24,000 nucleotides of DNA from Gammaproteobacteria bacterium (GTDB lineage: Bacteria; Pseudomonadota; Gammaproteobacteria; Acidiferrobacterales; Sulfurifustaceae), in the NCBI GenBank assembly GCA_016200465.1, contig JACQER010000036.1, positions 790 to 24,789 of the forward strand. Direction: 5' to 3'. Under the pieces are notes generated by a model. That model worked only from the letters and a program-made list of their open reading frames with translations, did no database searches and was not told the DNA's origin. Below, piece after piece: positions 3,148-13,207 of this stretch. The position numbers were made by a program, and so were the translations under genes. Each line of letters opens with the position of its first letter. Position 1 is the stretch's first letter.

Positions 3148-3915
3148 TTAACCGTAGCGTCCGGTGATGTAATCTTCGGTCTGTTTCTTGGACGGATTGG
3201 TGAAGATGGTGTTGGTGTCGCCGAACTCCACCGCCTCTCCCAGGTACATGAAGGCCGTGAAGTCTGATACACGCGCGGCCTGCTGCATGTTGTGCGTGAC
3301 GATCACGATAGTATAGTTCTTTTTGAGTTCGTAGATCAGTTCTTCGATCTTCAGGGTCGAGATCGGATCGAGCGCCGAGGCCGGTTCGTCGAGCAGCATC
3401 ACTTCCGGTTTCACGGCGATAGCGCGCGCGATGCACAGGCGCTGTTGCTGCCCTCCGGACAGGCTCATGCCGCTCTGACGCAGCTTGTCCTTGACCTCGC
3501 CCCACAGCGCCGCCTGCGTGAGCGCCCATTCCACGCGATCGTCCATTTCCGAACGCGGCAGTTTCTCATACAGGCGCACGCCGAAGGCGATGTTCTCGTA
3601 GATCGACATGGGAAACGGCGTCGGCTTCTGGAATACCATGCCCACCCGCGCGCGCAGCCGGAACAGGTCGGCTCCCGGCGCGAGGACGTTCTCGCCGTCG
3701 AGCAGGATCTCGCCGGTGGCGCGCTGGCCCGGGTAGAGCTCGTACATGCGGTTGAAGGTGCGCAGCAGCGTGGACTTGCCGCAGCCCGACGGGCCGATGA
3801 AGGCCGTGACCATGTTGGTGGCGACATCCAGGCTGATGTTCTTGAGCGCCTGGTACTTGCCGTAATAGAAGTTCAGGTCGCGCACCTGAATCTTGCCGTG
3901 GATGTCGTTGGCCAT
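3148..3915 (-). CDS. pstB: Phosphate ABC transporter ATP-binding protein PstB
   Basis: Starts at the internal Met [19 protein letters not shown] of the long run-on ORF 3148..5406. Walker [13 protein letters not shown] signature LSGGQQQRL and Walker B LLDEP are present. The ATG overlaps the pstA stop by 1 nt. Confidence 0.95.
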
Positions 3916-4760
3916 CAGTGCTCCAGTCGCACCTTGCGCAGCAGGGTTCGCGCCAAGATGCTCAGCGCCAGCACGCTCAGGGTGATCAGGAGCGAACCGG
4001 CCCAAGCGAGCGTGTGCCATTCCGGGTACGGGCTCATGGCGAACTGGAAGATCACCACCGGCAGGTTGGCCATCGGCTGCATCAGGTCGGTGCTCCAGAA
4101 CTGGTTGTTGAGCGCCGTGAACAGCAGCGGCGCGGTTTCGCCGGCGATGCGCGCGACCGCCAGCAGCACACCGGTGAGGATGCCGGAAAGCGCCGCGCGG
4201 TAGGCCACGAGCGAGATCATTTTCCAGCGCGGCGCGCCCAAGGCGAGCGCCGCCTCGCGCAGCGGGTTCGGCACGAGCCGCAGCATTTCCTCGGTGGTAC
4301 GGATCACGACCGGCAGCATGATGATGGCGAGCGCAATCGCGCCGGCGAGCGCGGAGAAATGCCCCATGCGGATCACGACCATCTCGTAAACGAAAAGCCC
4401 GATGATGATCGACGGCGCGGACAGCAGAATGTCGTTGATGAAGCGGATGGTCCCGGCGACCCAGGTGCGGCCGCCGTATTCCGCGAGATAGGTGCCGGCG
4501 AGGATGCCGACGGGCGTGCCGATCACGGTCGCCAGTCCCACCATGATGAGACTGCCGACGATGGCGTTGGCCAGTCCGCCGGCGGCGCCGGGAGCGGGTG
4601 TGTTCTGGTGAAACAGGTTCCAGTCGAAGGCCGAGACGCCGTAGCTCAGCGTGGTCCAGAGTATCCAGAACAGCCAGAACAGGCCGAAGACGGTGGCGAG
4701 CAGCGACCCCGTGAGATTCACGATGTTGACGGTACGCCGCCGCAAGTAGCGCAGGTCCAT
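3915..4760 (-). CDS. pstA: Phosphate ABC transporter permease PstA
   Basis: 281-aa polytopic membrane ORF with an EAA-loop-like segment ([15 protein letters not shown]), positioned between pstC and pstB. Confidence 0.93.
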
Positions 4761-4763
4761 GGC

Positions 4764-5735
4764 TCAGCTTTTGGCGCTGTCGCGCGACTCCAGCCCGAGC
4801 AGCAGTAGCTTGGCCAGCGCCAGCACGATGAAGGTGATCATGAACAGCACCAGCCCGAGCGCGATGAGCGCGGAGGTGTGCATGTCGCCCACGGCTTCGT
4901 TGAATTCGTTCGCCAGCGTCGAGGCGATGGAATTTCCCGGCTCGAACAGCGAGGCGCTCATGCGGTGGGTGTTGCCGATGACGAAAGTCACGGCCATGGT
5001 TTCGCCGAGCGCCCGCCCCAGCCCCAGGAATATGCCGCCCACCGCGCCGACGCGCGTGTACGGCAGCACCACGTTCCACACCACTTCCCAATGCGTGGCG
5101 CCGACGCCGTAGGCCGACTCCTTGAGAAACTTGGGCGTGGTGAGAAACACGTCGCGCATGAGCGCGGTGATGAACGGAATGATCATGATGCCGAGGATGA
5201 TGCCGGCGGGCAACATGCCGATGCCGAGCGGCGCGCCCTGGAACAGGGCGCCGATGAGCACGGTGTCGCCGAATCGCGCCTGCAGCCAGGGCTGGACATG
5301 CTGCGACATGACCGGCGCGAACACGAACAGTCCCCACATGCCGTAGATGATGCTGGGAATGGCCGCGAGCAGCTCGATGGCGGTACCGATCGGGCGTCGC
5401 ATCCATCCCGGCGCCACCTCGGTGAGAAATACCGCGATGCCGAAGCTCATCGGTACCGCGATCAGCAGCGCGATCACGGAACTGACCAGCGTTCCGTAAA
5501 TCGGCACGAGCGCCCCGAATCGTTCAGTCACCGGATTCCATTCGTCGGTCACGAGGAATTTCGGGCCGAACGCGACGAGAGCCTGCCAGCCGCCGACAAA
5601 CAGAGACACGATGATGCCGGCGAGGATCACCAGCACCAGCCAGGCCGAGCCGGTGGTCAAGGCTTGAAAGAAACGGTCCATCAGGCGTTGTCGCCCGCTG
5701 ATGGTGTCGGAAATGTGTGAACGGCTGATGTCCAT
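4764..5735 (-). CDS. pstC: Phosphate ABC transporter permease PstC
   Basis: Polytopic membrane ORF with PstC-like segments ([39 protein letters not shown]). I prefer the ATG at 5735 (MDISRSH...) because the track's GTG at 5765 lies inside the 3' arm of the intercistronic hairpin. Confidence 0.9.
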
Positions 5736-5743
5736 ATTATTAT

Positions 5744-5777
5744 GGTAAAGAGAAAGCGGGGTCACGAAGGACCCCGC
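5744..5777 (-). terminator. pstS-pstC intercistronic hairpin (partial terminator or mRNA-stabilising element)
   Basis: On the minus strand GCGGGGT-ccttcgtg-ACCCCGC forms a perfect 7-bp GC stem, followed by TTTCTCTTTACC. It lies 27 nt after the pstS stop. Confidence 0.55.
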
Positions 5778-5804: not shown

Positions 5805-6890
5805 TTACTTCTGGACCATGCCGTCGGTCCAGATAGCCTTGCCGCTCGCGTCCTTGATCTCGGTTTTCCATGTTTCTTCGACCAGTTTCACGATGCTGGC
5901 CGGCATCGGGACGTAATCGAGTCCCTCGGCCATCTTGCCACCGTGGTGATAGGCCCAGTCGAAGAACTTCAGCACCTGCTGGGCGGTCTCGGTTTTTTCC
6001 TGTTTCTTGTAAACCAGGATGAAGGTCGCGCCCGTGATTGGCCAGCTTTTCGCGCCCAGCTGATCGGTGAGCATCAGATTGAAACCCGGCGTGCCTTTCC
6101 AGTCGGCGCCCGCGGCCGCGGCCTGGAACGTTTCGCTGTCCGGCTTCACGAACTGGCCGGCCTTGTTCTGCATTTGCGCGAACGTCATCTTGTTCTGCAG
6201 CGCGTAAGCATATTCGACGTAACCAATCGCACCCTTCAGGCGCTGCACGTACGAGGCCACGCCCTCGTTGCCCTTGCCGCTCACGCCGGTCGGCCAGGCG
6301 ACCGAGGTGTTGTTGCCGATCTTTTCCTTGAAGCCCGGGCTGACCTTGGACAGATAATGCGTGAAGATGAAGGTGGTGCCAGAACCGTCGGCGCGCGACA
6401 CGACGGTAATTTTGCCGTTCGGCAGTTTCATGTTCGGGTTGAGTTTCTTGAGCGCGGCGTCATCCCAGTTGGTGATCTTGCCGAGATAGATGTCGGCCAG
6501 CACCGCGCCGGTGATTTTCAGTTCGCCCGCCTTCACGCCTTCCAGATTCACGACCGGCACCACGCCGCCCATGACCATGGGGAACTGCATCAGCCCGATC
6601 TCGTTGAGTTTTTCCACCGTGAGTGGTGCGTCCGAGGCGCCGAAGTCCACGGTTCTGGCCGTGATCTGTTTGATGCCGCCGCCCGAGCCGATGGACTGGT
6701 AATTCATGCTCGTGCCGGTCTTGGTCTTGTAAGCCTCGGCCCATTTGGCGTAGATCGGATAAGGGAAGGTCGCGCCCGCGCCGTTGATGGTTTCGGCGGC
6801 TTGTGCGAGGCCGGCGGCCAGGCCGAGCAACATCGCCGCAGCCGTCGCCGTATGTTTCAGTTGCTTGGGGAAGATACACATTTTTGTCAT
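5805..6890 (-). CDS. pstS: Periplasmic phosphate-binding protein PstS
   Basis: Starts at MTKMCIFPKQLKHTATAAAMLLGLAAGLAQA (signal peptide), then ETINGAGATFPYPIYAKWAEAY and SRADGSGTT, typical PstS motifs. GGAGA lies just upstream. The track ORF extends to 7106 only as an upstream GTG run-on. Confidence 0.95.
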   Translation of the reverse strand: MTKMCIFPKQLKHTATAAAMLLGLAAGLAQAAETINGAGATFPYPIYAKWAEAYKTKTGTSMNYQSIGSGGGIKQITARTVDFGASDAPLTVEKLNEIGLMQFPMVMGGVVPVVNLEGVKAGELKITGAVLADIYLGKITNWDDAALKKLNPNMKLPNGKITVVSRADGSGTTFIFTHYLSKVSPGFKEKIGNNTSVAWPTGVSGKGNEGVASYVQRLKGAIGYVEYAYALQNKMTFAQMQNKAGQFVKPDSETFQAAAAGADWKGTPGFNLMLTDQLGAKSWPITGATFILVYKKQEKTETAQQVLKFFDWAYHHGGKMAEGLDYVPMPASIVKLVEETWKTEIKDASGKAIWTDGMVQK

Positions 6891-6943
6891 GTCTCCGTAA
6901 TGTCGATTATCGCTGAATGCGGGGCACATCATGCCAAGGCAAT

Positions 6944-6961
6944 GTGACAGATGTATGACAG
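6944..6961 (-). promoter_or_regulatory. Pho box (PhoB binding site) of the pstS promoter
   Basis: The minus strand reads CTGTCATACATCTGTCAC: two 7-bp direct repeats (CTGTCAT and CTGTCAC) with 11-bp periodicity, essentially the E. coli consensus CTGTCATA(A/T)A(T/A)CTGTCA(C/T). It lies 54 nt upstream of the pstS ATG. A possible -10 (CATGAT) is at 6928-6933, 10 nt downstream. Confidence 0.75.
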
Positions 6962-7026
6962 CGCGCTTGCCCAGCACAACTCGAGTACAGCCCTGAAGAC
7001 CGGGCAATGTCAGGTACGTGCCGGCG

Positions 7027-8154
7027 TCAATGTGTGGATGATATGGCCGGAGCCGGGCAGCATTCGGCGTAAGTGGGGATACCCCGTTTGCGCTCGTACC
7101 AGTCACTGCTACGGTTGACGATTTTCACCACCGAGAGCATGACTGGCACTTCGATCAGCACACCGACCACGGTCGCCAGCGCCGCACCCGATTCGAAACC
7201 GAACAGACCGATGGCGGCGGCCACGGCGAGTTCGAAGAAATTGCTGGCCCCGATCAGGGCCGACGGACCGGCGACGCAATGAGCGACCCTGAACCGCCGG
7301 TTGAGCAGGTAGGCGAAACCGGAATTGAAATACACCTGGATCAGAATCGGCACCGCCAGCAAAGCGATGATAAGTGGGGCGCGCAGGATCTGTTCGCCCT
7401 GGAAGCCGAAGAGCAGGACCAGCGTGGTGAGCAGCGCCAGCAGCGAAACCGGATGCAGCCGGCGAAGCGCGCGTTGCAGCGCGGCGTCGCCCCCGTGGCG
7501 CAGCAACTGACGGCGCCACCACTGGCTGAATATCACCGGGAGGACGATGTACAACGCCACCGACAGCAGCAGCGTGTTCCAGGGCACGCTGATTGCAGAG
7601 AGTCCGAGCAGCAGGCCCACGATCGGCGCGAACGCGAAGATCATGATGGCGTCGTTGAGGGCGACCTGCGTGAGGGTGAAGTTGGCGTGCCCACGGCTCA
7701 GGTTGCTCCACACGAATACCATCGCCGTGCACGGAGCCGCGGCGAGCAGGATCAGCCCCGCGAGGTAGGAATCGATCCGGTCGGCCGGCAGCCAGGGCGC
7801 GAATACATGGCGGATGAAAATCCATCCAAGCAGGGCCATCGAAAACGGCTTGACCAGCCAGTTGATGAACAGCGTCACGCCGATACCGCGCCAGTGCTCG
7901 CGCAGATGGTGCAGCGCCCCGAAGTCCACCTTGAGCAGCATCGGCACGATCATGAGCCAGATCAGCAGCGCGACCGGCAGGTTGACGCGCGCCAGCTCCA
8001 GCCGCCCGACCGCGTGGAACAGCTCCGGGAACAGATGCCCCAGCAGTATTCCGGCGGTGATGCACAGGAACACCCACACCGTGAGATAGCGCTCGAACAG
8101 CCCCATCGGATTTCCCGCGGCGTGCTTGCCGGTGACTTCGCATCGGGCGCTCAT
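7027..8154 (-). CDS. acr3: Arsenite efflux permease, ACR3 family
   Basis: 375-aa polytopic membrane ORF whose overall layout looks ACR3-like (e.g. [42 protein letters not shown]); these segments are my own picks, not checked against family motifs. The ATG overlaps the arsC stop (ATGA). An alternative start is at 8106 (MGLFERYL). Confidence 0.9.
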
Positions 8155-8609
8155 GTGTGCTCCTTGCTGTCGCTGCGCGCCAGCATTTTTATTCCGCCGA
8201 TCATTCCCTCGACGCGGCTTTTGACCTCATCGCGCGTGGCGCGGAACTTGGCCATGATCTGTTCTTCCGTGCCGGTGGCCTTGGCCGGATCTTCCAGCGG
8301 CCAGTGTTTCTTCTGCACGCCGGGCGGCAGCACCGGACAGTGCTCATCGGCATGGCCGCACACGGTGACCACCAGATCGGCCTGCACCAGCATCTCCGGC
8401 GTCACGCGTGTGGATTCCTGACGCGAGATATCCACGCCGGCCTCGCGCATGACGGCGATCGCGCGCGGATTTTTTCCGTGCGCCTCGATGCCGGCGGATG
8501 TCGCCTCCAGCCATTCGCTTCCCAGATGATTGGCCCAGCCTTCGGCCATTTGCGAACGGCAGGAGTTGCCGGTGCACAGAAACAGAATCCTCACTTTGCG
8601 TTTGTACAT
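8151..8609 (-). CDS. arsC: Arsenate reductase, thioredoxin-coupled LMW-PTPase type
   Basis: Starts [25 protein letters not shown] (CX5R P-loop). The downstream Cys pair [10 protein letters not shown] resembles the pI258-type Cys10/82/89 relay. I prefer the ATG at 8609, preceded by AGGAAA, over the TTG at 8633 used by the track. Confidence 0.9.
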
Positions 8610-8636
8610 TCGGTTTCCTGTATGAACGATCAAGAT

Positions 8637-10010
8637 TTATCTGCAAACTGTGCCCGTGCTGCAGGCGATGGGGTTGCCGGGCGGATGGCCATCCGGCGAC
8701 GGGCAGAACACCGGTGCGAACCCGCCGCCCTGGGTGCGGAAGTTGGTCGTCTGCCCCTGATACAGTCGCGCGGCGAGCAGCTGCACCTCGCCGTCGTAGA
8801 CGTAATTACGGATGTCGAGTTTGAGTGCCGTTTCGACTCCGTCCTGTCGCAGCCGCCGCTCACTTGGCGCGATTCGCTCCTGCGCCACGTAGTGACCTGT
8901 GATGATTTCGTCCCACACCCGCTTGGTGAGTTTGTCGCCGCGATAGGCCGCTCTTCCGCCGTAACCGGCGGCGGGTTTGAAGAAAAGTGCGCGTCGCTGT
9001 GCCCACAGCAGTTCGGCGCCGGCGCGTGTCACCGGCACGGTGCGTGGAATGCCGGTCAACAGCGTATGGATGACGGGCTCCGGAACCCGCCACGCACGCA
9101 GCCGCGCGCCGTCGGTCAGTGCGACGAGATTGCGCTTGTCGGCATAGAGCGCATGCGCGCGCGGATGGGGCGTGAGCACGACACCGCCTTCGAGGTACGC
9201 CTGACGCAGCACCGCGTGCCGCGGTTCTTCCAGGGCGAAATCGGTCAGGCGGTTGTACACGAGATCGATTCGTTGGTTTTCGTGCCACAGCTTGTCGTGG
9301 CACAACATGAGTTCGGACGGATCGGCGATCACGGCCTTGAGCCCGTGACGGCGGAACAGACGCTCGAATAAAAGAAACTCCGGGTAGAGATACTGCTCCC
9401 GGGGAGCGTCATCCACGATGGCGATGCTCGCGAGCGGTTGTGCGCCGCGTTGCCGGTGCCACTCGCGCAGGAACATTTGATGGAAAATGTCCTCGAGCGT
9501 GGCGACGGGCGTGGGCTCCGGTATCAGCGGTTTCATGGCCTCGCAGCACGCAGCCTGCGCGCGCGCCAGTGCGGTGTTGAGCAGCGCCCCGCCGGCATTG
9601 GTGTTGATCTCGATGAGCTGCGGTCCCGCGGCTCCGAGATGGAAGTCATAGCCCATGAACACGCCACGTGGTCCCGGGTCGAAGCGGGCGATTTCCGGCG
9701 CCTCGGCCAGCGCTTCCTCGCGATAGGCCGGGAGCGCCACCACGGCCTCGACCGCCCGGATGATCTCGCGCATGCGTTCGGCCTGTTCCGGCGTTACGAA
9801 CACCGCCATGGCCGAGAAAAGATTCGGCCGGTTGGCGAGGATTTCGTCATAGAGATCGGCGTCGGCGCCGGCGCCGTCGGCGTCCAGCCCTTGCCGCAGC
9901 GTGTCGCGGTTGACGGTCACGCAGAGACAATCACGATTGAGCGCCGTGGCCAGGTCTTCGGTTCCGGTCGCGGAATGGATCGTCGACGGTTGAGTAATGA
10001 ATCTGTTCAT
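8637..10010 (-). CDS. Uncharacterised ATP-grasp-superfamily ligase, apparently circularly permuted (eukaryotic glutathione-synthetase-like motif order)
   Basis: 457-aa ORF with a strong RBS (AAGGAAAcgtATG), sitting between arsR and arsC on the same strand with short gaps. The motifs FMGYDFHL...QLIEINTNAGG (residues about 118-141) precede the glycine-rich loop FFKPAAGYGGRAAY (about 343-356) and YVAQERIAPSE (about 374-384). It is clearly a real gene. The biochemical assignment is inference from motifs recalled from memory. Confidence 0.8.
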   Translation of the reverse strand: MNRFITQPSTIHSATGTEDLATALNRDCLCVTVNRDTLRQGLDADGAGADADLYDEILANRPNLFSAMAVFVTPEQAERMREIIRAVEAVVALPAYREEALAEAPEIARFDPGPRGVFMGYDFHLGAAGPQLIEINTNAGGALLNTALARAQAACCEAMKPLIPEPTPVATLEDIFHQMFLREWHRQRGAQPLASIAIVDDAPREQYLYPEFLLFERLFRRHGLKAVIADPSELMLCHDKLWHENQRIDLVYNRLTDFALEEPRHAVLRQAYLEGGVVLTPHPRAHALYADKRNLVALTDGARLRAWRVPEPVIHTLLTGIPRTVPVTRAGAELLWAQRRALFFKPAAGYGGRAAYRGDKLTKRVWDEIITGHYVAQERIAPSERRLRQDGVETALKLDIRNYVYDGEVQLLAARLYQGQTTNFRTQGGGFAPVFCPSPDGHPPGNPIACSTGTVCR

Positions 10011-10066
10011 ACGTTTCCTTCAGCCCGCGAGCCGGCTTTCGACTTCACGTATGTCGGCGCCGGCCA

Positions 10067-10423
10067 TCAGGCGCAGCAGCGTACCGGTGGCCGGGTCGGC
10101 GCGCCGCGCAGGCGCTTGCGGTCCTGTGCGAACGGTTTGGCCGCGGCATTGGCCCGGTTCGCGGTGCTCAGAATTTCGCGCGCCCAGGCCGGCAGATCGG
10201 GATTGATACGATAGTGGATCCACAATCCCTCGCGCCGGTCGCTGACGATCCCGGCCTCGCGCAGCGTTGCCAGATGGCGCGAAATCTTGGGTTGCGACTC
10301 AGCCAGCGCGTGGGTGAATTCGCACACGCACAGCTCGCCTTCGGCCGCGAGCAGCAACAGGCAGCGCAATCGCGTCGGATCGGCCAGGGCGAGGAAGAAG
10401 TTTTCAGCGGTAATCATATTCAT
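10067..10423 (-). CDS. arsR: ArsR-family arsenite-responsive repressor
   Basis: Winged-helix HTH with LADPTRLRCLLLL, the metalloid-site motif ELCVCEF and SQPKISRHLATLREAGIV. It is the first gene of the ars operon. Likely start is the ATG at 10423 or 10417; the track's 10453 is a TTG extension into the AT-rich promoter. Confidence 0.9.
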   Translation of the reverse strand: MNMITAENFFLALADPTRLRCLLLLAAEGELCVCEFTHALAESQPKISRHLATLREAGIVSDRREGLWIHYRINPDLPAWAREILSTANRANAAAKPFAQDRKRLRGAPTRPPVRCCA

Positions 10424-10453
10424 GAATATATGACAATACATATATATGTTCAA
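10416..10453 (-). promoter_or_regulatory. ars operon promoter with overlapping palindromic operators
   Basis: On the minus strand: TTGAAC (10453-10448), a 17-nt spacer, then TATATT (10430-10425), followed directly by C-ATG-AAT-ATG. Two perfect palindromes overlap it: ACATATATATGT (10438-10449) and ATATTCATGAATAT (10416-10429). Confidence 0.5.
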
Positions 10454-10524
10454 TCATATATATAAGTCATTGTTTCAATCCTTGAAAATAAGGCTGGTGA
10501 CCGGCTGGCTCGTGGCGGGGGCGG

Positions 10525-11031
10525 CTATTTTGCTTCACTCCCCGTTTCGGGCGAGAAACGCGCCGTCACGATACGCAGTGCGACCAGCGTGACGATTACG
10601 CCGAGCCCCAGCAGGACTTTCTCCGGAGCGTATTCCTTGAACCATAGGCCCATCAGTTCGCCGATCAGCACCACCAGGGCGGTATCGAGAATGAATGTGA
10701 CGCGCACGCGTCCCAGTTTCAAATAGGCCTGGAGCGTGCGAATGACTTCCAGCAGTGCCAGCATGATGAGCGCCTTGATAATCACGTGTTCGGCAATGCT
10801 TGCCCAGCCTGTGGTGAGCGTTTCACGCAGGCCGGCGATCAGGTGAATAATCCCCGCCAGCATCCACAGGCACAGCGCTACGATCAGCAATCCGGTGAGA
10901 TGACGGACCAGGGCAGGATAAATAACGTCAGCGGTAACGTGGCCGGGAACGGGGGCTTGCGCGGCTTGTTCGACGGCCGGGCTTGCTTCGATGCGGTGGA
11001 ACTTGGCGGCCACATTGCTCATGGCCGGCAT
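10525..11031 (-). CDS. psiE: PsiE-family (phosphate-starvation-inducible) membrane protein
   Basis: 168-aa ORF with about four hydrophobic helices. The segment LLEVIRTLQAYLKLGRVRVTFILDTALVVLIGEL is comparable to the PsiE core. It lies 46 nt downstream of phoR on the same strand. Confidence 0.6.
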   Translation of the reverse strand: MPAMSNVAAKFHRIEASPAVEQAAQAPVPGHVTADVIYPALVRHLTGLLIVALCLWMLAGIIHLIAGLRETLTTGWASIAEHVIIKALIMLALLEVIRTLQAYLKLGRVRVTFILDTALVVLIGELMGLWFKEYAPEKVLLGLGVIVTLVALRIVTARFSPETGSEAK

Positions 11032-11077
11032 GATGGACCGTCTCTATGAAATTCGTATTACACCGGTGCCGGCAACG

Positions 11078-12373
11078 TCAGGCGCGGACAACCCGCTGTT
11101 CCGGGAAGATGCAGCGAAACGTACTGCCCTGACCGACCTCGCTTTCGATTTCGAGCCGGGCGTCGTGACGCAGCAGCACGTGCTTGACGATGGAAAGCCC
11201 CAGGCCGGTCCCGCCCGAAGCGCGCGAACGCGCCGTGTCCACGCGGTAGAAGCGTTCCGTCAGGTGCGGAAAATGTTCCGGCGCGATGCCTTCGCCGCTG
11301 TCGCTGACGGCGAATTCGGCGCCGTCACCCGCGGCGCGCCACGTCAGCCGTATCCCGCCGCCGGCCGGGGTGTAACGCACCGCGTTGTTGATCAGGTTGG
11401 AAAAGGCGCTGTGCAATTCGTCGCGGCTGCCGAGCAGCCTGAGCGATGGATCGGCCTCCAGCGTGATGTCATGGCGGTTCTCCCCGCTCAACAGTTTCGC
11501 CTGTTCCACGAGGCTCTTCAGAAGCGCGGCGATATCCACCGGCTCGACGTGTGTGCGCGGCGGCGCGGTTTCGAGTTTCGAAAGCATCAGCAAATCCTCC
11601 ACCAGGCGCTGCATGCGCTGGGATTGCTCGTGCATGGTGGAGAGATGTTTTTGGAGATCTTCCATTTTGATCTGGTCCATTTGCCGCAGTGTTTCGACGT
11701 AGCCACCGAGGACCGTGAGCGGCGTGCGCAGCTCGTGCGAGACGTTGGCCACGAAATGACGGCGCATCTGTTCCAGCCGCATCAGCCGGGTGACGTCGCG
11801 CCCGATGACCAGTTTCTGGCTGCTGCCAAACGGTGTGATTTGGATCGAGACGTGGATTTCGCGATTGTCCGGCGAGGTGATTTCCAGCGGCTCGACGTAT
11901 TCGCCGCGTTCCAGGTACTGGGCGAAGCCGGGCACGCGCAACAGGTTGAGCAGGCGCATGCCCGCGTCATGCGGATAGCGGATGCCGAGCAGGCTCGCGG
12001 CCGAACGATTGGCCCACTCGATGTCGCCCGCCTGCGACAACACCACCACGGCGTCGGGCATCGCCGAGGCGGCATTCTGGAACCGCGCCAACATGCCGCT
12101 CAACTGGTCCTGACGACGCGACGCCTGTTTGACGAGCTTGTGGATCTCGTCGAAGACCTCGCCCCACAACCCGCCGGCCTCCGGCATGTCGCCGGCGCGG
12201 CGGTCGAGCAGCCAGCGGTGCAGGTTGCGCAGGTGACGCAAGGTCCAGGCGATGTAGAAACCGAAGCCGAGCACGGCGATCAGGAACGGCCGGCCGGTGA
12301 GCGCGCCCAAGAAAAGGCTCAGCACGGCGATGCCGACGAGAATCAAGATTTCGCGCCACAGGCCGGGATGCAT
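11078..12373 (-). CDS. phoR: Phosphate regulon sensor histidine kinase PhoR
   Basis: 431 aa with N-terminal TM helices, a PAS-like region, an H-box FVANVSHELRTPLTVL, and an HATPase domain (NLINNAVRYTP, DSGEGI, GGTGLGLSIVKHV). It lies 4 nt downstream of phoB. Confidence 0.95.
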   Translation of the reverse strand: MHPGLWREILILVGIAVLSLFLGALTGRPFLIAVLGFGFYIAWTLRHLRNLHRWLLDRRAGDMPEAGGLWGEVFDEIHKLVKQASRRQDQLSGMLARFQNAASAMPDAVVVLSQAGDIEWANRSAASLLGIRYPHDAGMRLLNLLRVPGFAQYLERGEYVEPLEITSPDNREIHVSIQITPFGSSQKLVIGRDVTRLMRLEQMRRHFVANVSHELRTPLTVLGGYVETLRQMDQIKMEDLQKHLSTMHEQSQRMQRLVEDLLMLSKLETAPPRTHVEPVDIAALLKSLVEQAKLLSGENRHDITLEADPSLRLLGSRDELHSAFSNLINNAVRYTPAGGGIRLTWRAAGDGAEFAVSDSGEGIAPEHFPHLTERFYRVDTARSRASGGTGLGLSIVKHVLLRHDARLEIESEVGQGSTFRCIFPEQRVVRA

Positions 12374-12377
12374 GCGC

Positions 12378-13067
12378 TCAGTCCTGCGTCGAGAAGCGGT
12401 AGCCGGTGCCGCGCACCGTCTGGATCAAGCGCTCGTGTCCGGTGGCGGTCAGGATCTTGCGCAGGCGGCGGATGTGCACGTCCACGGTGCGTTCTTCCAC
12501 GTACACGTTGCTGCCCCACACGCTGTCGAGCAGCCGCTCGCGCGAATGCACCCGTTCGGGATGGGTCATGAAGAATTGCAGCAGGCGGAATTCCGTGGGA
12601 CCCATTTCCAGGGCTTGCCCGCGCGCACTGATGCGATGCGCGACCGGATCGAGCTTCAGGCCGCCGATTTCCACCGTCGTCTGGGCGGCGTGCGGAGCGG
12701 TGCGCCGCAGCAGTGCCTTGATGCGTGACAGCAGCTCGCGCGTGGAAAACGGCTTGGTGATGTAGTCGTCGGCGCCGCTGTCCAGTCCGGCCACTTTGTC
12801 CTGTTCCTCGGTGCGTGCCGTGAGCATGATGATGGGAATGTCCTGTGTCAGTTTCTCGCGCCGCAGACGCCGGGAGTATTCGATCCCGCTTTGTCCCGGC
12901 AGCATCCAGTCGAGCAGGATCAGGTCGGGCTTCTCAGCGAGGATTTTCGCCTGTGCCTCGGCGGTGTCGGCCGCCTCGATGCAGTCGTAACCCGACTGCG
13001 ACAGGGCCAGGCAGACCATCTGCCGGATGGCGGATTCGTCGTCGACAACGAGGATTTTGGCCCGCAT
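12378..13067 (-). CDS. phoB: Phosphate regulon response regulator PhoB (OmpR family)
   Basis: Starts [11 protein letters not shown]. Receiver domain with [10 protein letters not shown], and a winged-helix output domain ([42 protein letters not shown]). The track ORF carries a 25-codon upstream extension. Confidence 0.95.
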
Positions 13068-13207
13068 GGTTGAGTGCCCGGGCGTAATGACCCTTGGTTT
13101 TGCCGCCATTTCATACCATAAATATTGCAATTTGGTTACCATTAACCGTTTCAGCGCCGGGCCGTCGCCCCAAGCGGGCCGGCCGGACGAATCAAGGCAG
13201 GAAAAGC

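Follow-up and report, generated by a model that had tools for sequence, protein, structure and literature searches.

A predicted glutathione-synthetase-like ATP-grasp ligase encoded in an ars operon belongs to an unnamed family recurrent in metal(loid) resistance islands

Introduction

Amide-forming enzymes of the circularly permuted ATP-grasp architecture include the eukaryotic glutathione synthetases (GS) and homoglutathione synthetases (human 2HGS/8FBZ, yeast 1M0W, soybean 3KAL), as well as the GspS/trypanothione synthetase family with E. coli YgiC and YjfC (2IO8, 7UK6, 7UK8), which ligates a peptide carboxylate to an amine. In trypanosomatids, trypanothione conjugates As(III) and Sb(III), which offers a functional parallel to a ligase encoded in an arsenic resistance (ars) operon. 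A predicted ligase of this kind, hereafter gene X, lies between arsR and arsC in the stretch of gammaproteobacterial DNA analysed here (24,000 nucleotides of contig JACQER010000036.1, hereafter the window). Two further systems come close to it, the CP_ATPgrasp_2 family (PF14403; 3N6X, Mfla_0391) and Cp1B of E-64 biosynthesis (9CJN), a GS-like ATP-grasp amide ligase that joins a small carboxylic acid and an amino acid (PMC12568646).

The named ars accessory genes form the other point of comparison. Like them, gene X shares the strand of its close-set neighbours in operons under ArsR control, and its association with ars genes recurs across taxa; unlike them, it is not specific to ars. To our knowledge, none of the named ars genes (arsA, D, H, I, J, K, M, N, O, P, T, X and others) encodes an ATP-grasp ligase. 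The original prediction, made from the sequence of the window, had said the same, and a literature search on ATP-grasp or GS-like ligases in ars or heavy-metal resistance found neither a paper describing such a gene nor a description of the X family. Arsenic, copper and mercury resistance islands have been intensively annotated, yet X is still a “hypothetical protein” there, with no Pfam or NCBIfam model, despite thousands of sequence clusters and a presence on conjugative plasmids. What is new here is this unmodelled family of GS-like ligases in the context of metal(loid) resistance islands; the architecture itself is already known. Taken as a whole, the best explanation, to which we give a probability of about 45%, is that X is a ligase making a thiol-bearing amide in such islands.

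Predicted fold of X

An AlphaFold2 model of X computed from an alignment reached a pLDDT (predicted local distance difference test) of 84.4 and a pTM (predicted template modelling score) of 0.86, and is disordered only at residues 1–17 and 441–457. Compared by Foldseek with the Protein Data Bank (PDB), this confident model matched many solved ATP-grasp enzymes over its full length (457–509 aligned columns, template modelling score (TM) 0.5–0.6). The best matches were human GS (8fbz, 2hgs; E = 1.6e-15 to 1.6e-14), yeast GS (1m0w; 3e-14), the fungal ligase Cp1B (9cjn; 4e-14, TM 0.58, 17% identity) and soybean homoglutathione synthetase (3kal; 4.5e-14, TM 0.61), followed by the circularly permuted ATP-grasp protein 3n6x (1.1e-13), E. 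coli GspS (2e-11), and YgiC and YjfC (about 1e-9); trypanosome GS was also among the full-length matches. Over the eukaryotic GS and homoglutathione synthetases together, E thus spans 1.6e-15 to 4.5e-14 and TM 0.52–0.61, and over the GspS family E spans 2e-11 to 3e-9. In contrast, classical GshB (1gsa) and PsnB aligned over only 266–297 columns (E about 3e-5, TM about 0.3). Because the classical enzymes align only partially, a GshB- or RimK-type enzyme was dropped as a candidate. The permuted, eukaryotic-GS-like fold of the original prediction was hence recovered by the structural comparison with human GS and GspS that it had proposed.

Sequence models see far less. The X protein of the window matches no Pfam or NCBIfam family at E ≤ 1, a phmmer search against PDB chains gave a best E of 0.5, which is noise, and a profile of 31 sequences (alignment A1) retrieved no PDB chain, GS included, at E ≤ 10. 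Among 108 diverse members of the family, sub-threshold matches were obtained with ATPgrasp_ST (30/108), CP_ATPgrasp_2 (26/108, best E 5e-6), YheCD (23) and ATP-grasp_3 (18). The GS families are absent from the 25 Pfam families most often matched by these members, and GSP_synth matches neither X nor any of the 108 in the scan. The Pfam profiles suggested as a check of the original prediction therefore gave a divided answer: none of the GS, CP_ATPgrasp or GSP_synth models recognises X itself, while diverse relatives weakly match CP_ATPgrasp_2. These weak matches explain the label “Circularly permuted type 2 ATP-grasp protein” that a single homologue carries in UniRef.

By its modelled structure, X is predicted to be an ATP-grasp ligase of the GS/GspS-like circularly permuted architecture that forms a family of its own. 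It departs from eukaryotic GS in sequence (13–15% identity only, and missed by GS Pfam models and PDB-sequence profiles), in two cysteine motifs that the aligned human segments do not have (an N-terminal CxC and a CC), and in being bacterial and set in metal-resistance islands. The GspS family shares the permuted fold, but X has neither a GSP_synth match nor an amidase domain. Cp1B is a eukaryotic enzyme of secondary metabolism encoded in a biosynthetic cluster, whereas no such cluster surrounds X. As for CP_ATPgrasp_2, the structural match to 3N6X and the weak matches of relatives stand against the lack of any PF14403 match at E ≤ 1 for the X of the window. The typical neighbours of CP_ATPgrasp_2 genes, which we take to be Alpha-E domain and transglutaminase-like proteins, are not found among the recurrent clusters of genes next to X or among 103 neighbours scanned. 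X behaves as a sister family of CP_ATPgrasp_2.

Catalytic motifs and conserved cysteines

The motifs FMGYDFHL (residues 118–125), LIEINTNAGG (residues 132–141), the glycine-rich loop FFKPAAGYGGRAAY (residues 343–356; 8943..8984, minus strand), supported by the alignment and by family conservation, and QERI (residues 377–380) lie exactly where the original prediction had placed them. The core EINTNAGG (residues 134–141; 9588..9611, minus strand) is invariant in A1 and kept in 270–271 of 278 family sequences. Residues were mapped onto human GS (hGS) with a query sequence verified as identical to 2hgs chain A (474/474 residues). With hhalign, A1 gave no meaningful alignment to hGS, and a 116-sequence family profile under relaxed settings placed X 15–433 colinear with hGS 8–472 at E = 0.039. 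Since this value is not significant alone, the alignment was used for motif mapping only, and the residue equivalences rest on motif matching together with the fold match.

In this mapping, X E134 and N136 align with hGS E144 and N146, R254 with R267, K292 with K305, and K345 with K364. The segment Q377-E378-x-I380-x-P corresponds to hGS M398-E399-x-I401-x-P, the X GGGF loop to the hGS A-loop DGGV, and the glycine-rich loops are also aligned. Hence, the EINT Mg site, the S-loop arginine, the two ATP lysines, the glycine-rich loop, the hinge motif and the C-terminal glycine loop are colinear in both proteins. For hGS we take it that E144, N146 and E368 are Mg ligands, that K305 and K364 are the ATP lysines, and that the loops have their usual assignment. 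The mapped catalytic positions are at least 95% conserved in the 278 family sequences. K292 and K345, aligned with the lysines that contact the ATP phosphates, and the Mg2+-ligand counterparts E134 and N136 are invariant, and the Mg site is only partly equivalent to that of hGS, whose third ligand, E368, is Gly349 in X. The hGS segment holding E214, N216 and Q220 aligns with another conserved X motif, DDxPxxQYLYPEF.

Two cysteine motifs accompany the catalytic ones. A CxC (Cys28 and Cys30; 9921..9929, minus strand) stands in the motif LNRDCxC and is invariant in A1. A vicinal CC (Cys155 and Cys156; 9543..9548, minus strand), identified from the alignment and the 278 family sequences, lies 19 residues past the EINT Mg site. 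All four cysteines occur together in 185 of the 278 sequences and three of the four in a further 13; the CxC is often retained where the CC is lost. Judged from their sequence, CxC and CC resemble As(III) or soft-metal sites and could equally be structural. More cysteines are found in the low-confidence C-terminal tail CPSPDGHPPGNPIACSTGTVCR (residues 436–457; 8640..8705, minus strand; Cys436, Cys450 and Cys456), where pLDDT falls below 50 at residues 441–457. At least two tail cysteines, terminal CC tails among them, are present in about 19/80 homologues, namely in 7/18 ars-linked loci versus about 12/62 others. This correlation with the ars context was judged too weak to use.

Gene X within the arsR-X-arsC-acr3 operon

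Gene X is an open reading frame of 457 amino acids with an ATG start (8637..10010, minus strand). Its Shine-Dalgarno sequence AGGAAA (10014..10019, minus strand) was read directly in the sequence, 3 nucleotides 5' of the ATG. Upstream, arsR (10067..10420, minus strand; NF007528, E = 1.7e-34; PF01022) encodes an ArsR/SmtB metalloregulator; its start was taken as the ATG at 10420, the open reading frame finder giving a TTG at 10453. Downstream, arsC (8151..8609, minus strand) encodes a thioredoxin-coupled arsenate reductase of the low-molecular-weight protein tyrosine phosphatase (LMW-PTP) type with Cys12, Cys84 and Cys91 (TIGR02691, 182.7 bits for a cutoff of 174.3), and acr3 (7027..8154, minus strand; TIGR00832, E = 3e-113) an arsenite efflux permease. 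Curated models thus agree with the neighbours that had been named from the sequence, including the thioredoxin-coupled type of ArsC.

The junctions read in the sequence are short. The gap from the arsR stop to the X start is 56 nucleotides, that from the X stop to the arsC start is 27 nucleotides and holds a second AGGAAA, and the arsC stop shares 4 nucleotides (ATGA) with the acr3 start. Within arsR to acr3, weak hairpins of 5 pairs alone were detected; the first strong terminator-like hairpin lies 3' of pstS. In front of arsR lie a promoter-like site and, read directly in the sequence, the AT-rich palindromes ACATATATATGT and ATATTCATGAATAT (10421..10470, minus strand). The sigma-70-like promoter match runs from 10453 to 10425 on the minus strand, and ATATTCATGAATAT overlaps the arsR start. 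The palindromes are a candidate ArsR operator. The short gaps, the ribosome-binding sites, the ATGA overlap, the promoter-like site at arsR and the lack of a strong internal terminator make X a member of this operon. The gaps and the strong ribosome-binding site on which the original prediction relied were verified, and so was its placement of X within the operon, no credible terminator being found inside. On fold and operon membership jointly, we are highly confident that X forms an integral part of a closely spaced arsR-X-arsC-acr3 operon.

The DNA of the window has 62% G+C and is rich in antisense shadow open reading frames. For X, a chance or shadow frame was ruled out by the G+C of its codon positions 1/2/3 (0.70/0.47/0.77), by its homologues and by its structure model. 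The ArsR of the window itself holds two kinds of As(III)-binding motif, the classical ELCVCEF and a C-terminal vicinal pair, RCCA.

Recurrence of gene X in metal(loid) resistance islands

X has more than 8000 homologues in 90% clusters, almost all unnamed, the closest being 85% identical. In 50% clusters, the family counts 3262 representatives at E ≤ 1e-3, of which 1128 reach E ≤ 1e-30. Sequence identity is still 50–60% between members from Beta-, Gamma- and Alphaproteobacteria, with dozens of residues invariant. Scanning one genome per species gave 586 relatives, of which 80 loci were retrieved and compared with the window (81 loci in all). Neighbouring genes were called by codon-position G+C and clustered, recurrent clusters were annotated with Pfam, and contexts were counted within 6 kilobases (kb) of X.

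Ars genes (LMW-PTP ArsC, Acr3, ArsR, ArsD/ArsA, ArsP, Thioredoxin_3) occur near X in 18/81 loci, alone in 7, with Pho/Pst genes in 6 and with other metal genes in 5. A YHS/HMBD P-type ATPase, CDF or DUF411 gene is close by in 18/81 loci, 13 without and 5 with ars genes. Pho/Pst genes alone are seen in two loci, and the order dinG-X-mobB-moeA-moaD-moaE, which belongs to molybdenum cofactor (Moco) synthesis, in 18. In a neighbour-joining tree, the ars- and metal-linked X proteins are scattered over many clades, and the gene orders vary: arsR-X-arsC-acr3, arsR-arsC-acr3-X, arsC-acr3-arsD-arsA-X, arsP-X-trx-CDF and X-P-ATPase. Scattered clades and varied orders argue for repeated recruitment rather than one inherited arrangement. 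On a further contig (L096) the order is arsR-arsC-acr3-X, and X and the end of acr3 overlap. The ars linkage proposed for the window thus recurs elsewhere, in several clades and architectures; as a frame for the family it proved too narrow, as X sits equally in copper, zinc/cadmium and mercury islands and also in Pho/Pst and Moco loci.

X is carried by 31 plasmids, always annotated as “hypothetical protein”, and in 13/13 inspected it lies among copper, mercury, zinc/CDF or efflux genes. Its neighbours are copAB, copRS, copCD, azurin and DUF411 on Halomonas pHAL1, merT-merF-merA-merB on Pseudomonas pMR68, and multicopper oxidase, ICMT, DUF2933, DUF5676 and HMA genes on Sinorhizobium pSinB and Paracoccus pAK2. 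Moraxella, Janthinobacterium, Mesorhizobium and Caulobacter plasmids carry a Cu P-type ATPase, CueR and DUF305 near X, and a Sphingobium plasmid has a CDF gene 25 nucleotides 5' of X, between two IS6100 copies. RND efflux genes are found on Acidovorax and Sulfuricella plasmids, HMA, ppk2 and a P-type ATPase on Polaromonas pPNAP02, and DUF305 and a phospholipase-D-family gene on a Hoeflea plasmid.

The 18 Moco loci (L010, L011, L014, L017, L029, L030, L037, L042, L043, L052, L054, L057, L059, L061, L064, L070, L073 and L078) form a single clade of Betaproteobacteria (Rhodocyclales-like). There, the X stop and the mobB start overlap by 4 nucleotides in 11/18, and the dinG stop and the X start overlap by 4–8 nucleotides in most. 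X is a true, translationally coupled operon member in this clade.

Proposed function and alternative explanations

The best reading of these contexts is that members of the family are accessory genes of As, Cu, Hg and Zn/Cd resistance islands, widely distributed, still without annotation and frequently mobile. The functional tie of the family to metal(loid) stress we consider probable. If X works like the characterised enzymes of its architecture (GS, homoglutathione synthetase, GspS and Cp1B), it is expected to use ATP to phosphorylate a carboxylate, which it would then join to an amine. In the mechanism that we propose, X would be a cytosolic ATP-dependent carboxylate-amine ligase with a small, probably thiol-containing product that buffers thiol-seeking metal(loid)s. 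Arsenite would switch on X through the ArsR of the operon; the As(III)-type ELCVCEF and C-terminal CC motifs of this ArsR and the compact operon are the grounds on which we infer induction. ATP would then activate the carboxylate of a small metabolite, most plausibly a cysteine peptide, gamma-Glu-Cys or glutathione, as an acyl-phosphate, to be attacked by the amine of an amino acid, a polyamine or a second peptide. The thiol-bearing amide may buffer As(III) and soft metals, or shield thiol and dithiolene cofactors, and the four conserved cysteines of CxC and CC may bind metal(loid) and gate the activity.

No universal partner gene of X was found among the loci compared, and the absence of a fixed partner suggests ubiquitous small-molecule substrates. 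The contexts share an affinity for thiols (As(III), Cu(I), Hg(II), Zn/Cd, the dithiolene of molybdopterin), from which we guess at a glutathione-related thiol amide. An AsnO-like amidotransferase sometimes encoded directly 3' of X fits small-peptide chemistry. That the product is a thiol conjugate is nevertheless a tentative assignment, held at less than even odds. If it is one, or a chelator, X would add a biosynthetic arm to a resistance so far understood as reduction and efflux, could explain the link with Moco genes, and could serve as a metal-stress marker for environmental and clinical plasmids, for example those of Moraxella and Pseudomonas. In a bolder version, which we regard as rather unlikely, a metal(loid)-gated X, carried on mobile As/Cu/Hg/Zn islands, would link thiol peptides to form a chelator with several thiols, which would also guard the molybdopterin dithiolene. 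The product may then be of the phytochelatin type, (gamma-EC)2-Gly, formed from the Cys carboxylate of gamma-Glu-Cys and the Glu amine of glutathione, or a trypanothione-like conjugate of glutathione and an amine. Such chemistry, if true, would be an unrecognised bacterial pathway and resistance determinant and possibly bring a new low-molecular-weight thiol to Proteobacteria.

Several observations weigh against a thiol-making ligase of metal(loid) resistance. No recognised metal, Pho or Moco context surrounds X in 29/81 loci, where the neighbours include MFS (6), glucoamylase-like (3), EamA (3), chromate transporter (2), CusB-type (2) and CopB (1) genes. A thiol buffer accounts only loosely for the coupling with Moco genes. 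Neither a gamma-Glu-Cys ligase nor a cysteine-supply gene was found beside X in the neighbourhoods scanned. The ArsC of the window is coupled to thioredoxin, so that arsenate reduction needs no special thiol. The cysteine quartet is family-wide, Moco clade included, and could be a structural Zn or Fe-S site. In addition, the hhalign score against hGS is not significant by itself, the hGS Mg ligand E368 is replaced by Gly349, and hGS R125 has no counterpart in X. With E368 and R125 not kept, X is not a simple copy of GS, and its activity is only predicted. Finally, substrate and product are not readable from the sequence of X.

One rival explanation is that X is an alternative GS of the eukaryotic type, converting gamma-Glu-Cys and Gly to glutathione and boosting the glutathione pool when metal(loid)s deplete it. 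GS and homoglutathione synthetases are indeed the best structural matches, the EINT, VY-R, KP-G-rich-loop and (Q/M)E-I-P motifs are colinear with hGS, and the metal contexts are those of a raised demand for glutathione. However, Cp1B, 3n6x and GspS match about as well, so that the fold is no specific indicator of GS chemistry, and the sequence models (no Pfam GS match at E ≤ 1, none in the top 25 families of the 108 members, no PDB GS chain for the A1 profile at E ≤ 10) and the two lost residues, R125 and E368, point away from GS. Proteobacteria normally own GshB, and no gshA-like partner lies near X in the loci scanned; hence, we find this assignment quite unlikely. We judge improbable to the same degree that X acts on the carboxylate of a protein or peptide, or in sulfur transfer, by ligation or thiocarboxylation with its cysteines relaying sulfur. 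This would explain the place of X in the Moco operon, where it is translationally coupled (18 loci, 4-nucleotide overlaps in 11/18) and where MoaD, of the ThiS family, is encoded; it would also suit the four conserved cysteines and the ATP-grasp clades RimK, TTL and PsnB, which modify proteins or peptides, PsnB and TTL being weak matches to X. The Moco synteny is nevertheless confined to one clade, where it may reflect common descent of the gene order. Outside it, no ThiS/MoaD-like or other small partner frame accompanies X, and the characterised enzymes of the permuted architecture all use small molecules.

The 29 loci of no recognised context could also be taken to mean that X is a passenger whose unrelated role lies, for example, in phosphate, polyphosphate or central carbon metabolism, and that it reached ars and metal islands by hitch-hiking on mobile elements. 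X does occur in a Pho/Pst locus and beside ppk2, phospholipase-D-family, phosphoketolase, acetate kinase, tal and pgm genes, and transposases flank it on several plasmids. Yet it is tightly packed or overlapping in ars operons of at least four independent architectures, spread over many clades, and metal or efflux neighbours on 13/13 plasmids greatly exceed the expectation for a random gene, going by an estimated, not computed, baseline. A passenger therefore seems unlikely to us. On the other hand, X might serve chiefly to bind or sense metal(loid)s, as a chaperone or a buffer acting through its cysteines, with the ATP-grasp chemistry vestigial or regulatory. CxC and CC motifs resemble those with which ArsR and ArsD bind As(III), the X of the window also has a Cys-rich tail, and X lacks the third of the hGS Mg ligands. 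Conservation of 95% or more at nearly all ATP-grasp catalytic positions, in a family of thousands of sequences, implies that catalysis is under selection, and the tail cysteines are variable, making a pure binder highly improbable. A ligase of small thiol metabolites in metal(loid) resistance thus remains the explanation that we prefer.

Other features of the loci

On the minus strand of the window, the genes follow the order phoB-phoR-psiE-like-arsR-X-arsC-acr3-pstS-pstC-pstA, and the ars/X operon is embedded in a Pho/Pst locus (5805–13142). Upstream of arsR lie phoB (12378–13142) and phoR (11078–12373), both identified from their translations and from the same synteny in homologues, and the psiE-like gene (10525–11031; PF06146). 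Downstream of acr3 are pstS (5805..6890, start coordinate approximate; NF008171, E = 1.5e-135), pstC (4764–5765) and pstA (3915–4760), the last two recognised by equivalog models; all are on the minus strand. The terminator-like hairpin after pstS (5756..5777, minus strand), detected by a hairpin scan, has 8 pairs, 7 of them G-C.

The embedded layout is common to the window and its relatives L002–L004, L006, L023 and L094, and arsenate detoxification genes seem to have been integrated into the phosphate-starvation locus in the lineage of the window. The nearest relatives, Sulfuricaulis metagenome-assembled genomes (MAGs) with 82–85% identity, have the same layout, with arsP and a small thioredoxin-fold gene between arsR and X. 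Contig L094 reads phoB-phoR-x-X-(ArsC-like)-pstSCAB-phoU-ppk. Its ArsC-like gene (7363–7818 of JAJYEX010000001.1), which follows X, encodes 151 amino acids, 45% identical to the ArsC of the window. Neither the P-loop cysteine nor the two catalytic cysteines further along are kept (VDTDRLSCS; TISGSDSKTAP), and this degenerate ArsC stands between X and pstS in a locus that lacks arsR and acr3. Two relatives come from MAGs labelled as Bacteroidota (L002, 82% identical to the window protein) and Clostridia (L068); X and its flanks are typical of Proteobacteria in both, and these contigs are probably mis-binned.

Some homologues are longer, about 540–650 amino acids (L027, L046, L047, L055, L058, L085 at 7327–7662, and L087), and end in an additional conserved domain, some 120 residues long, with motifs such as YVFLLDE, LYVALARG, ADWYVRL and VVNETY; this C-terminal domain has no Pfam match. 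A spermidine-synthase neighbour was followed as a lead and abandoned: it appeared as 2/103 neighbours scanned and was located neither by motif nor among ten neighbours scanned.

Other genes recur next to X. An AsnO-like “N-acetylglutaminylglutamine amidotransferase” gene lies 3' of X in some loci (L026, L046, L085 at 7681–9513, L062 and L080), where transaldolase, phosphoglucomutase, phosphoketolase and acetate kinase genes are found nearby in metal islands, an odd recurring module of carbon metabolism. A “putative glucoamylase” gene (PF10091, about 435 amino acids) adjoins X in six loci (L007, L024, L035, L044, L062 and L068). On two unrelated plasmids, Sulfuricella pSCD (L084) and that of Hoeflea (L092), a phospholipase-D-family gene is directly 5' of X. 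On Sulfuricella pSCD, an F-type ATPase operon, with atpD first and an AtpZ/AtpI gene included, begins 1 nucleotide 3' of X.

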